Counted from the stretch's first letter, positions 20,537-23,959 are shown. The stretch: 23,959 nucleotides of DNA from a virus (IMGVR_UViG_2648501400_000002:1-23959); one strand, 5' to 3'. A program made the numbers and translations. Notes: generated by a model from the letters alone, not told the origin.

Positions 20537-21109
20537 TTACATTTCAGGTTGCGTTATGACAGTCCCAACAGGGTGATAGCGGTAGATCGTTGACAGTCCA
20601 ATATCATAGATAATTGCCAGCCGCTTTCTGTCATACCCTTTCTGGAGCAATCTTGCGATCTGCTCATGCTGCTCCTTCGTCAGTTTCGGGCGACGTCCTC
20701 CAACTCTTCCTTGTGCTCGCGCAGCAGCCAGTCCAGCCAGCGTGCGCTCAACTATCAGTTCACGCTCCATTTCTGCCAGTGCACCCATCATATGAAAAAA
20801 GAACCTTCCCATCGGAGTGCTGGTATCGATTGAATCCGTCAGACTGCGAAAATTGACACCTTTTGCGCGTAGCTCTTCTGTGAGAGCAATGAGGTGTTTC
20901 ATTCTTCTACCCAACCGATCCAGCTTCCAGACCACCAATGTATCCCCTCTTTTAAGGCACTTTAAAGCGCGTTTCAGGCCTGGTCGTTCCGACTTGGTTC
21001 CGCTCATTTTGTCCTCAAAAATCTGTTCACATCCTGCGCACATTAATGCATTGCGTTGCAAATCTGTGTTTTGGTCATTTGTTGACACACGTATGTAGCC
21101 AATCAGCAT
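20537..21109 (-). CDS. pin: Serine recombinase, Pin/Gin/Hin/Cin-family DNA invertase
   Basis: MLIGYIRVSTNDQNTDLQRNALMCAGCEQIFEDKMSGTKSERPGLKRALKCLKRGDTLVVWKLDRLGR... closely resembles the e14 Pin invertase as I recall it. Start set at ATG 21109; the track ORF extends artificially upstream. Confidence 0.92.
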   Translation of the reverse strand: MLIGYIRVSTNDQNTDLQRNALMCAGCEQIFEDKMSGTKSERPGLKRALKCLKRGDTLVVWKLDRLGRRMKHLIALTEELRAKGVNFRSLTDSIDTSTPMGRFFFHMMGALAEMERELIVERTLAGLAAARAQGRVGGRRPKLTKEQHEQIARLLQKGYDRKRLAIIYDIGLSTIYRYHPVGTVITQPEM

Positions 21110-21163
21110 TAAAAATACTCCCTTTTGAGTGGTTAAAGTACTGAGATAATGTGGGGAGGATTT

Positions 21164-21189
21164 GAGAGATAAACGTTGGTTTGGGGGAA
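21164..21189. other. Candidate invertase crossover site (cassette 1)
   Basis: GAGAGATAAACGTTGGTTTGGGGGAA. Its right half GGTTTGGGGGAA resembles gix/hix half-sites (GGTTTACAGGAA / GGTTTTCAAGAA as recalled). Lies at the 5' edge of the segment shared with the expressed fibre gene. Confidence 0.4.
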
Positions 21190-21609
21190 GGCTCGGCGCT
21201 GCCCGTTGGTGTACCTGTTCCGTGGCCCACTGCCACACCGCCAGCAGGCTGGTTAAAGTGCGACGGGCGCGCCTTTACAAAAGAACAATATCCTGTTCTG
21301 GCCAGAGTCTACCCGACCCTCCGTCTTCCCGATTTACGCGGTGAGTTTATCCGTGGATGGGACGACGGGCGAAAAGTGGATACAGGGCGCGATCTGCTTT
21401 CACGGCAGGATGGTACAAGTTTTTCTCATTACGCAGGTAATTTTGACATTGGGTCTGGTCATTCAATCAATAACTATGACCAAATCGTTGACAACCAACC
21501 TGGATTCTCCCGTTTTTCATTTGCAGGTCCTTCGCGAGGCGATGGGGTTAATTATGTGACCATTCGTCCCCGTAACATTGCGTTTAATTACATCGTAAGG
21601 GCGGCATAG
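21181..21609 (+). CDS. Promoterless tail-fibre C-terminal cassette 1 (silent alternative receptor-binding tip)
   Basis: No ATG start (the track start is TTG). The first ~65 residues, GEGSALPVGVPVPWPTATPPAGWLKCDGRAFTKEQYPVLARVYPTLRLPDLRGEFIRGWDDGRKVDTGR, are identical to an internal segment of the expressed minus-strand fibre. A divergent tail ends ...NIAFNYIVRAA. Confidence 0.7.
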   Translation: MGEGSALPVGVPVPWPTATPPAGWLKCDGRAFTKEQYPVLARVYPTLRLPDLRGEFIRGWDDGRKVDTGRDLLSRQDGTSFSHYAGNFDIGSGHSINNYDQIVDNQPGFSRFSFAGPSRGDGVNYVTIRPRNIAFNYIVRAA

Positions 21610-21628
21610 AAACGTTGGTTTGGGGGAA
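21603..21628. other. Candidate invertase crossover site (cassette 2)
   Basis: GGCATAGAAACGTTGGTTTGGGGGAA; same right half-site as cassette 1. Confidence 0.4.
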
Positions 21629-22081
21629 GGCTCTGCATTGCCTGTTGGTGTACCGGTTCCATGGCCCACCGCCACACCGCCAGCAGGCTGGTTACAGTGC
21701 AACGGAGCTACGTTCACCAAAGAACAATATCCTGTTCTGGCCAGAGTCTACCCGACCCTCCGTCTTCCCGATTTGCGCGGTGAGTTTATCCGTGGATGGG
21801 ACGGTGGTCGCAAGGTTGATACCGGGCGTGCGCTACTTTCATTTCAGGAAGGGACTATCGTATCCGGTTTTGATGATAATGATACCGGAGATATCAGTTC
21901 GCTCGGCTCTATACAATACGGATTTGGTGACGCTTTAACCTCTAATCAACTGGGGGTCATAAATGGCAAAAAGTGGATATTTGATGCATCCTCTAAAGGT
22001 GCACGAAGATATGACTGGTGGGCTTATGTATCAGCTCGCCCCCGCAATATCGCATTTAACTATATCGTGAGGGCGGCGTGA
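21620..22081 (+). CDS. Promoterless tail-fibre C-terminal cassette 2 (silent alternative receptor-binding tip)
   Basis: Same conserved ~65-residue leader as cassette 1 and the expressed fibre, then a different variable tail ending ...RPRNIAFNYIVRAA. No ATG start. Confidence 0.7.
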   Translation: MGEGSALPVGVPVPWPTATPPAGWLQCNGATFTKEQYPVLARVYPTLRLPDLRGEFIRGWDGGRKVDTGRALLSFQEGTIVSGFDDNDTGDISSLGSIQYGFGDALTSNQLGVINGKKWIFDASSKGARRYDWWAYVSARPRNIAFNYIVRAA

Positions 22082-22087
22082 TACCGT

Positions 22088-22702
22088 TCAGCCGGCAAGC
22101 GCCAGTGGCGCTTCCGGCCAGCTGATTTCAGGTGCCTTGCTGATATCCAGTGCGTTCAGCTCGTCGATATAATCCAGCACGGCGTTCAGTTTTGCCGTTT
22201 CTTCTGGTTTCAGACTGCGACCAGCACGCAGTTTGAGGTTGATAAGATCGACGGACGCCATCGCCTGTTTCACCCGTTGCTGGCGTTGCTGTCTGGCAAC
22301 CTCCAGTTCTGCGGCTCGCTGCCGTTCAGTATCGGTTACCCACGCCTCACCGTTCCAGGTATCCCATGGCGTGGCTGGCTGTTTTGTGGTGGTGTCCGCC
22401 GGGTAATCACCCGGTTGGGTAATCAGAACGGGGTTACCGTTCTCCGTGCTGTATACCGTCTCGCCGCGGTGATCAGGCACATGCTCCCACCCGTTCAGCG
22501 TGGCAGTCCGGCAAACCACGTAACCCGAAATTGCCTCCGGCGGTGCATCGGCGCACGAATGTGCCGGAGTACCCACCCCAAGGGCGAGATACTCCACAGA
22601 GGATGAGGTGTATTCCCGGGTTTCCTCGTCATAGTGATATACAGTGATATCGCCCGCTACAGTGGCGATACCGTTTTCATCCAGAACTGCAGTGTTACTC
22701 AT
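22088..22702 (-). CDS. tfa: Tail fibre assembly protein (Tfa chaperone)
   Basis: 204-aa product with a Tfa-like C-terminus (...NAVLDYIDELNALDISKAPEISWPEAPLALAG). Its ATG overlaps the stop of the upstream fibre gene (TAATG). Confidence 0.85.
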   Translation of the reverse strand: MSNTAVLDENGIATVAGDITVYHYDEETREYTSSSVEYLALGVGTPAHSCADAPPEAISGYVVCRTATLNGWEHVPDHRGETVYSTENGNPVLITQPGDYPADTTTKQPATPWDTWNGEAWVTDTERQRAAELEVARQQRQQRVKQAMASVDLINLKLRAGRSLKPEETAKLNAVLDYIDELNALDISKAPEISWPEAPLALAG

Positions 22703-23959
22703 TAAACTGCCCTCACAATGTAATTAAGTGCAATGCTACGGGGTCTGACAGTGATACCCTTCGCATACCCGCTTCTGATAGAGGTCAGAATAGTAGCCTG
22801 CATACCATTGTCTGACATTGTTATGACAGGATTGCTGAATGTTGTCCCGTCCGGCATTTTAAAGCTGCCCTCACGAAGGTCTGTAATGGAATCTTCATTG
22901 TTGAATCCCATGCCGACTATCCCCGAGGTTCCCGTAGTGTCCTGGTTATAATAATCCAGCATTGCTGTTCTTAACAGCGTTGCCCCTTGTGCGGACAGCA
23001 ACTTACGTCCTGTATCAACTTTGCGCCCGTCGTCCCATCCACGGATAAACTCACCGCGTAAATCGGGAAGACGGAGGGTCGGGTAGACTCTGGCCAGAAC
23101 AGGATATTGTTCTTTTGTAAAGGCGCGCCCGTCGCACTTTAACCAGCCTGCTGGCGGTGTGGCGGTGGGCCACGGAACAGGCACACCAACGGGTAGCGCC
23201 GAGCCTTCTTCTAAACCAAGGTAATTGAGGACTTCTTTTATACTGCCCATAGCGATAATAGCGCGACCAATAGCTGTAAGGGTTGTCAGCGCTGCGCGGT
23301 CTGCTCCGGTAAAATAAGGCAACCGATCTGCTGCAGTGGCAAGTCCTGCCAGAGCAGTGAGCGTGGCATCTGCCGGTTGTTTTCCGTTTGCCAGATCGTA
23401 TGCAGCCTTGACCGCTTTCGGTGTGGCGGCCAGTATTTCAGACGTGCTGTTGATGTCACTGCTCAATTGTACGGTGCCTTTTGCCGTCAGCGAGGCAGCA
23501 GGCACTCCCGTTATCTGACTCCACGGGTGAGTGTGGCTGACGGGCGCCTTGCCGGCTGCAAGGTCGTATGCAGCCTTGACCGCCTTCGGTGTGGCGGCCA
23601 GTATTTCAGACGTGCTGTTGATGTCACTGCTCAATTGTACGGTGCCTTTTGCCGTCAGCGAGGCAGCAGGCACTCCCGTTATCTGACTCCACGGGTGAGT
23701 GTGGCTGACGGGCGCCTTGCCGGCTGCAAGGTCGTATGCAGCCTTGACCGCCTTCGGCGTGGCGGCCTCAGTTTCTGATTGACTGTCCGTGGCGCTGCTC
23801 AGTTGTACGGTGCCTTTTGCCGTCAGCGAGGCAGCAGGCACTCCCGTTATCTGACTCCACGGGTGAGTGTGGCTGACGGGCGCCTTGCCGGCTGCAAGGT
23901 CGTATGCAGCCTTGACCGCCTTCGGCGTGGCAGCCTCAGTTTCTGATTGACTGTCCGTG
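22702..23959 (-). CDS. stf: Side tail fibre protein, 5'-partial (continues beyond the window end), with 56-aa tandem repeats
   Basis: Frame stays open to the window edge. At least 3.7 copies of the repeat PAASLTAKGTVQLSS...APVSHTHPWSQITGV. C-terminal ...NYIVRAV resembles the cassette ends. Followed by tfa. Confidence 0.88.
   Translation of the reverse strand, partial: TDSQSETEAATPKAVKAAYDLAAGKAPVSHTHPWSQITGVPAASLTAKGTVQLSSATDSQSETEAATPKAVKAAYDLAAGKAPVSHTHPWSQITGVPAASLTAKGTVQLSSDINSTSEILAATPKAVKAAYDLAAGKAPVSHTHPWSQITGVPAASLTAKGTVQLSSDINSTSEILAATPKAVKAAYDLANGKQPADATLTALAGLATAADRLPYFTGADRAALTTLTAIGRAIIAMGSIKEVLNYLGLEEGSALPVGVPVPWPTATPPAGWLKCDGRAFTKEQYPVLARVYPTLRLPDLRGEFIRGWDDGRKVDTGRKLLSAQGATLLRTAMLDYYNQDTTGTSGIVGMGFNNEDSITDLREGSFKMPDGTTFSNPVITMSDNGMQATILTSIRSGYAKGITVRPRSIALNYIVRAV
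23205..23230. other. Candidate invertase crossover site inside the expressed fibre gene
   Basis: On the minus strand reads ...ATTACCTTGGTTTAGAAGAAGG; half-site GGTTTAGAAGAA. Inverted relative to the cassette sites and at the same boundary of the shared segment. Confidence 0.4.
23338..23959. repeat. 168-bp tandem direct repeats (about 3.7 copies in the window), coding for the fibre shaft
   Basis: Near-identical 168-bp units are visible directly, e.g. CCTTGCCGGCTGCAAGGTCGTATGCAGCCTTGACCGCCTTCGG... recurring at about 23377, 23545, 23713 and 23881. Confidence 0.9.

Follow-up and report, generated by a model that had tools for sequence, protein, structure and literature searches.

Positions 20,537–23,959 of the viral contig IMGVR_UViG_2648501400_000002:1-23959 very probably form an active DNA-inversion, or flipping, switch that chooses among three tail-fibre tips at the end of a Mu-like Escherichia coli prophage. 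We refer to the whole 23,959-nucleotide stretch that was analysed as the window. The module consists of a serine invertase, two silent tip cassettes (c1 and c2), a single tail fibre assembly gene (tfa) and a fibre gene made of a constant part (Sc) and the currently expressed tip (tipA), with three crossover sites distributed among them (Table 1). Sequence comparison identifies the element as Phi2, a prophage of E. coli EC958, to which the module is 98.5% identical. The switch is of the Min-like multi-site type, which has been described before, and its novelty is low because inversion in Phi2 has been shown, the design with three repeats and four variants has been validated in another E. coli prophage, and arrays have been known since p15B.

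An original prediction, made from this DNA alone, had listed an invertase, two promoterless cassettes, one tfa and the expressed fibre gene. All of these elements are present in 20,537–23,959, and the anatomy of the window bears out directly that the cassettes stand in tandem without a tfa of their own. The fibre gene lies on the minus strand with its stop at 22,702, is open to the window end past 23,959, and has a Pfam Phage Tail Collar domain at its C-terminus. The three crossover sites are 26 bp each, composed of two 12-bp halves around a TT core common to all three, with inner half-sites that read GGTTT(G/A)G(G/A)GGAA. At sites 1 and 2, the outer half-sites fit the consensus weakly, as they do in the published table of sites. 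A 22-nt pattern spanning the core has exactly three matches in the 24-kb window, at the three sites, and none in shuffled sequence (0/100 shuffles). Each inverted repeat begins with a site. The repeats are 229 nt long: arm 22,994–23,222 is 93% complementary to 21,173–21,401 at the start of c1 and 85% complementary to 21,612–21,840 at the start of c2. The inverted sharing of a leader had thus been recognised correctly but its length underestimated at ~200 nt, and of the boundary sites, which had also been recognised, the third had been placed one base away from its position in Table 1.

The module is 98–99% identical to a region found in hundreds of complete E. coli genomes, including EC958, a strain of sequence type 131 (ST131). 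Among ST131 strains, we directly observed all four possible isomers in the same prophage at the same insertion site, aroA. Isomer cfg0 carries Sc::tipA-tfa (seen in EC958); cfg1 carries Sc::c1-c2, then inverted, antisense tfa and tipA (R7); cfg2 carries Sc::c2, then inverted, antisense tfa, tipA and c1 (H105); and cfg3 carries Sc::c1, a tipA fragment and tfa, then inverted c2 (GN04133). At least three alternatives had been foreseen; three is the number of tips, and the isomers are four, the additional one being cfg3 with its tipA fragment and co-oriented tfa. The anticipated convergence of tfa with the new fibre gene after inversion is seen in loci L005 and L006. Junctions were also built for TT-core recombination of site 3 with either site 2 or site 1 and were searched in 5,426 complete E. 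coli genomes, with counts taken at an 80% coverage threshold. Both fusions occur over 100% of the query at ~99% identity, with Sc::c2 in 166 genomes and Sc::c1 in 157; the window's own arrangement is present in 203 genomes. In a count meant to tell cfg1 from cfg3, joined blast pieces inflated the number at 80% coverage. With three sites, two segments that overlap and three fusions in frame, the module has the make-up of a Min-type multi-site system, and the suggestion of such a system was the correct reading.

The crossovers map to the core. The first bases telling tipA from c1 and c2 stand at +6 and +9 after the core, and the cassette bodies are identical across the four isomer genomes whatever their left flank, save two isolated single-base differences; hence, 6/6 rearranged junctions are confined to the seven bases TTGGTTT. 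The half-sites are swapped reciprocally in these junctions: the left half-site of site 1 is joined to tipA or c2 in other isomers, and site 2 is used in cfg2 and cfg3. Since all crossovers fall in the first few bases of a 229-bp repeat, the exchange observed is site-specific, at the core, and not homologous recombination. RecA-dependent recombination between the repeats, or misassembly of them, is a very unlikely source of the isomers in place of the invertase: the repeats are long and 85–93% identical, and the outer halves of sites 1 and 2 (GAGAGATAAACG and GGCATAGAAACG) fit the published consensus poorly, both of which would favour it, yet no junction lies deeper in the repeat despite distinguishing bases at +6, +9, +24, +36 and +54, the junctions are reciprocal, the sites match the invertase crossover sites tabulated in the literature, and the isomers recur in hundreds of independent complete assemblies. 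The predicted three-tip inversion switch is therefore borne out by the four isomers and the core-mapped junctions.

Inversion of this segment has also been recorded within a single culture. In the passages on Phi2 of Forde et al. 2014 (PMC4134206), PacBio sequencing of EC958 yielded a second contig that carries the 2067 bp between TCCTCAATTACCTTGGTTTAGGAGAA and GAGAGATAAACGTTGGTTTGGGGGAA in inverted orientation. These two sequences are sites 3 and 1 of the window, where the distance between the outer edges is 2068 bp. Site 1 is identical to the Phi2_3prime site given there, and site 3 corresponds to Phi2_5prime with one base different in the right half. Four isomers at one locus in one clone, together with the mixed orientations in the PacBio data, are what inversion with core exchange by the Din family produces.

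A decayed remnant had been offered as the alternative to a working Min-like system, with the cassettes as relics of a Mu-G-type segment that lost its second tfa and ceased to invert. There is indeed only one tfa, and the cassettes lack a start and a promoter of their own. However, one clone shows all four isomers at one insertion site, the published PacBio data show both orientations within one culture, and the invertase is intact. The layout argues against decay as well, as Mu-like, P2-like and P1-like elements all retain the one-tfa array despite a divergence down to 56% Tfa identity. We regard decay as extremely unlikely; the population data, with both alternative fusions and four isomers, and the published PacBio evidence refute it. 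A single tfa among tandem cassettes had been thought unusual. In an IMG/VR survey of 80 loci, those with an invertase comprised 26 of the paired Mu-G type (one or two collar tips, two tfa) and 15 arrays of 2–8 collar cassettes with exactly one tfa, so tandem tfa-less cassettes are the normal design of array-type (Min-like) systems. Six surveyed loci (L024, L025, L080, L021, L060 and L088) hold 5–8 tandem or opposed collar cassettes and a single tfa, always directly after one particular cassette, in arrays much larger than the three-tip version of the window.

Some points weigh against reading the module as a functional tip switch. We infer switching in the genome from which the window derives from near-identical relatives, and site 3 of the window differs by one base from its EC958 counterpart (GAAGAA vs GGAGAA). 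The tfa gene is antisense in two of the four isomers with no promoter found in our scans of the module, and functional fibres from the c1 and c2 states are unproven. An effect of the three tips on receptor choice or host range is presumed, and conserved motifs suggest a dependence on Fis and its enhancer.

In the mechanism that we regard as very probable, the Gin-type serine invertase would recombine site 3 in the fibre gene with the oppositely oriented site 1 or site 2, each of which heads a promoterless tip cassette, by exchange at the shared TT core. In Gin and Hin, an asymmetric core identical in the partner sites lets religation after a 180° rotation occur only between inverted sites. Two overlapping inversions, of 2068 and 1629 bp from outer site edge to outer site edge, would interconvert cfg0–cfg3 and fuse the constant shaft Sc in frame to one of the three tips. 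Each tip would provide a gp37-like collar scaffold, with a conserved N-terminal part and a closing strand, around a differing receptor-binding insert of 53–87 amino acids, and the region would act as the host-range switch of the Mu-like transposable prophage Phi2.

The invertase has the architecture of the Din family, with an N-terminal resolvase-type catalytic domain containing Ser9 and a C-terminal helix-turn-helix in ~190 amino acids. The Ser9 motif GYIRVSTNDQ (MLIGYIRVSTNDQ) is intact; Ser9 is the nucleophile in Gin (PMC3575834). The protein matches the Gin structures 3UJ3 and 4M6F at E-values of 1e-92 to 2e-93; its identity with Mu Gin is 76% across 181 residues, and that with the invertase of a P2-like prophage module is 86%. 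It had been assigned to the Pin family; the Din family stands, and the enzyme is closest to the Gin type among the comparators used, Mu Gin and the P2-like prophage invertase. The invertase of the window would itself be the catalyst of the inversions observed. Two G-N13-C motifs at coding positions 94 and 140, spaced by 46 nt, are present in both Mu gin and the window gene, which align well across the 5′ region holding the Gin enhancer, and they mark a candidate Fis-bound enhancer. Known enhancers have a 48-nt spacing. The invertase promoter presumably lies in the 54-nt spacer ahead of site 1, where a strict scan for promoters gave no match. Counted from the invertase ATG, the first site ends after 80–81 nt in 16/16 distinct (non-identical) spacer sequences.

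The three tips have the first ~75 residues and the last 14 in common, and an insert of 53–87 residues differs between them. All three end in RPR(N/S)IA(F/L)NYIVRA(A/V). In phmmer searches, the N-terminal part of the tips aligns with the collar of both the T4 gp37 tip (2XGF) and a short tail fibre, and the C-terminal ...PR(N/S)IA(F/L)NYIVR aligns to ...KNIAFNYIVR at the C-terminus of gp37. The collar domain D10 of gp37 is formed by residues 811–881 and 1010–1026, with the receptor-binding needle inserted between them (PMC6957217). By these alignments, the tips appear to adopt a T4-gp37-type collar fold that is split by an inserted receptor-binding domain, with the C-terminus returning to the collar, and the conserved C-terminus is best explained as the closing element of this shared scaffold. 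The motif had been read as possibly allowing one Tfa to serve all tips; it does occur in all three, but since it aligns with the closing element of the gp37 collar, its conservation is explained by the fold and is not by itself evidence of a Tfa-binding tag. AlphaFold2 gave no usable model of tipA from a three-row alignment (mean predicted local distance difference test score 35). The c1 insert (window 21,402–21,570 vs L010 7030–7210) is 95–96% identical at the protein level to a cassette of a P1-like plasmid, with a visibly more diverged flanking collar, which suggests that the insert alone was recently exchanged between unrelated phage types. The number of shaft repeats differs between strains, with two fewer in EC958 than in MLI121 (L001 and L003); therefore, shaft length varies independently of tip choice.

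RefSeq marks the fibre gene and cassettes as 'incomplete' or as pseudogenes in L001 14,245–15,578 (EC958) and relatives. We rejected the pseudogene status of the ST131 fibre gene, as the EC958 open reading frame is intact from MGNLNETEKW to the stop codon. The labels are an annotation artefact of the invertible layout.

The single tfa encodes a Caudo_TAP protein, lies directly downstream of the expressed tip as expected for that family, and overlaps the tipA stop codon with its start codon (TAATG), which couples its translation to tipA only. As c2 and tfa are fixed tail-to-tail, 6 nt apart, the two never share an orientation when c2 is expressed; tfa runs antisense to the fibre operon in cfg1 and cfg2 and stands downstream in sense only in cfg0 and cfg3. 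With a strict sigma-70 scan, no promoter was detected that points into the segment or precedes tfa, nor any plus-strand site in the invertase spacer, and a relaxed scan scored tfa-adjacent tips and tfa-less cassettes alike (mean best score 8.36 vs 8.04), which leaves the idea of an internal tfa promoter without support. BLASTP detected no similarity between the window Tfa and Mu U or U′. The protein is 56% identical over its full length to the single Tfa of the P1-like plasmid array. Its N-terminal half, which corresponds to the fibre-binding part in Mu Tfa (PMC9608196), is ~55% identical by eye between the two arrays, and the tfa-adjacent tips of these arrays are unrelated (19% identity).

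How Tfa reaches the tips may be read in different ways. It is quite possible, if short of probable, that Tfa is the partner of tipA only and that the c1 and c2 tips fold unaided or with chaperones of the host or another prophage. The exclusive coupling to tipA, the fixed opposition of c2 and tfa, and the lack of a detected promoter to drive an inverted tfa all agree with this. So does the distribution of the tips, as inserts of the c1 and c2 types were seen exclusively in array cassettes that lack tfa, and tipA-like tips in many non-invertible tip::tfa pairs. Against it, gp37-type tips normally depend on a chaperone (PMC6957217; PMC9608196), and the conservation of Tfa between arrays with unrelated tfa-adjacent tips hints at recognition of the shared collar. 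That same conservation would favour one general Tfa for all tips, made in either orientation from a promoter that moves with it or from one on the invertase side that reads into the segment; the collar and C-terminal strand common to all tips, and the arrays of up to eight cassettes with exactly one tfa, point the same way. We hold this second reading tentatively: a by-eye candidate extended −10 (TGAGATAAT, 21,142–21,150, plus strand) faces into the segment, but it overlaps the likely invertase promoter, the scan placed no plus-strand site in the spacer, and tfa-adjacent tips carry no stronger promoter-like signal. What expectation these two readings leave falls to the c1 and c2 states being non-productive. 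A related and equally tentative proposal is that the tfa-less tips of the c1/c2 class are distinct miniature gp37-like tips that assemble without the phage's own Tfa. If true, a Min-type array with up to eight tips would supply a chaperone for just one of them, and in at least half of the isomers fibres would be made while no Tfa is expressed.

The prophage in the window and Phi2 of EC958 represent the same element, with the same outer sites and the same inverting segment; they differ in insertion place, which is the gpZ gene of a lambdoid prophage for the window copy and aroA for Phi2. The passages of Forde et al. 2014 on Phi2 give two outer sites and a generic mirror-image layout with a cognate minor fibre gene, and they do not describe the internal site 2, the four isomers or the single tfa. 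The same architecture is known from a P2-like prophage in enteropathogenic E. coli (EPEC) E2348/69, whose tail-fibre 'shufflon' was validated by polymerase chain reaction (Goldberg et al. 2014, PMC4272514). It has three homologous inverted repeats, overlapping inversions of ~2200 and ~1800 bp, four variants and three C-termini. This likeness is one of layout; the host phage is P2-like, and tfa is not discussed in that paper.

Homology to P1/p15B-type arrays runs through the P1-like plasmid CP027133, which shares with the window the TT-core sites, a c1-like insert and a related Tfa. Like the window, it has a serine invertase, at least five 26-bp TT-core sites with near-identical half-sites, tandem collar cassettes whose stop codons fall within the following site, and a single tfa that is coupled to one cassette. 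The P1-like phage vB_EcoM-673R5 was dropped as a comparator because its annotation is too fragmented. Min, on the P1-type plasmid p15B, reportedly has six sites and 240 isomers (Sandmeier and co-workers, 1990–92), as against three sites and four isomers on a Mu-like prophage here, so the window system is Min-like and not Min proper, a comparison based on the present-day plasmid CP027133 and on these reported figures for Min.

Mu G/Gin and P1 C/Cin share with the window 26-bp sites and the end order of baseplate, fibre, invertible segment and invertase. Mu, however, has two sites, a TC core in gix in place of TT, and mirrored S-U / U′-S′ pairs with two tfa genes, whereas the window combines a single tfa with three sites and tandem cassettes. 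It thus lacks the two sites and mirrored tip-and-tfa pairs of the two-state Mu G and P1 C systems, a difference from Mu G that the original prediction had already drawn. R64-type shufflons also swap the C-terminus of an adhesin through multiple overlapping inversions. In these, the tyrosine recombinase Rci acts on sfx sites; the window module, whose sole recombinase is the serine invertase, does not belong with them.

The module ends the prophage. A 78-nt terminus, identical in all copies, abuts five unrelated flanks (window, L001, L002, L003 and L007), which are aroA, ecpC, cbtA and a permease region in other strains and a gpZ gene in the window. The EC958 prophage encodes a DDE transposase, an ExeA/MuB-like protein (MuB-like ATPase), Gam and Mor, and follows a Mu-type gene order of tail, baseplate, fibre and invertase at the prophage end. 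The common end starting with TG, the differing flanks and the Mu-type genes together point to a transposable Mu-like phage. Positions 1–20,458 of the window contain the head module of a lambdoid prophage, with terminase and capsid E among its genes. Within this prophage, the Mu-like element interrupts the gpZ (Minor_tail_Z) gene at 20,194–20,459, where profile positions 1–84 of 190 are left; with gpZ cut at position 84, one prophage has transposed into another.

Two further strains carry related arrangements. Locus L007 (E. coli EC5654, CP095086) has a two-tip version of the module without c1, which may have arisen by deletion between sites 1 and 2, themselves direct repeats, or may represent an ancestral state. 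Strain 4/0 (CP023849, 955–1004 kb; L094 and L096) contains a P2-like prophage beside dmsA with its own Min-like module, comprising the invertase that is 86% identical to that of the window, three cassettes including a tipA copy, and one tfa identical at 200/204 residues. The ~44 kb between its P2-like and Mu-like modules are inverted relative to EC958, and the half-sites are reciprocally swapped, with the P2 shaft joined to c2 and the invertase-side site of the Mu-like module joined to a P2 tip. This looks like inter-prophage recombination at the crossover sites, although the crossover may instead lie within the identical collar.

Table 1. Features of the tail-fibre switch module and of the adjoining prophage end, in window coordinates.
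Feature	Position	Strand	Description
Right terminus of Mu-like transposable prophage	20459–20536		starts with TG at 20459, runs to invertase stop codon
Serine DNA invertase, Gin/Hin/Cin/Pin/Min (Din) family, 190 amino acids	20537–21109	-	Pfam Resolvase (E 8e-51) and HTH_7
Putative Fis-bound recombinational enhancer	20956–21016	-	two G-N13-C motifs in 5′ part of invertase gene
Spacer, 54 nt	21110–21163		invertase start codon to site 1; invertase promoter presumed here
Crossover site 1, adjoining invertase	21164–21189	+	GAGAGATAAACG TT GGTTTGGGGGAA
Silent tip cassette c1, 143 codons and stop	21178–21609	+	Pfam Collar; collar, 53-residue insert, C-terminal strand
Crossover site 2, internal	21603–21628	+	GGCATAGAAACG TT GGTTTGGGGGAA; contains c1 stop codon
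Silent tip cassette c2, 154 codons and stop	21617–22081	+	Pfam Collar; tail-to-tail with tfa, 6 nt apart
tfa, only tail fibre assembly gene, 204 amino acids	22088–22702	-	Pfam Caudo_TAP (PF02413), E 6e-27
tipA, currently expressed tip, 171 codons and stop	22702–23217	-	related to T4 gp37 tip (2XGF) and a short tail fibre
Crossover site 3, inside expressed fibre gene	23206–23231	-	TCCTCAATTACC TT GGTTTAGAAGAA
Constant fibre part Sc	23218–23959	-	runs off window; 168-nt tandem repeats 23381–23946 (Phage_fiber_2)

The scientific gain is small, as invertase-driven tip switching, multi-site arrays and this same prophage have all been published. The modest additions are that the internal site is used, that the crossover maps to the core, that the C-terminal motif can be read structurally and that one-tfa arrays are general. 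Of possible specialist interest is that one tfa may serve, or be dispensable for, tips expressed while tfa is antisense, a question that concerns all array-type systems. The apparent recombination between two modules in different prophages, which inverted 44 kb and swapped tips between phages, may be a second such point. For the biology of E. coli, the switch accounts for differences in this region among complete assemblies of closely related strains, including the pandemic ST131 clone, and for the labelling of the cassettes as truncated genes by annotation pipelines.

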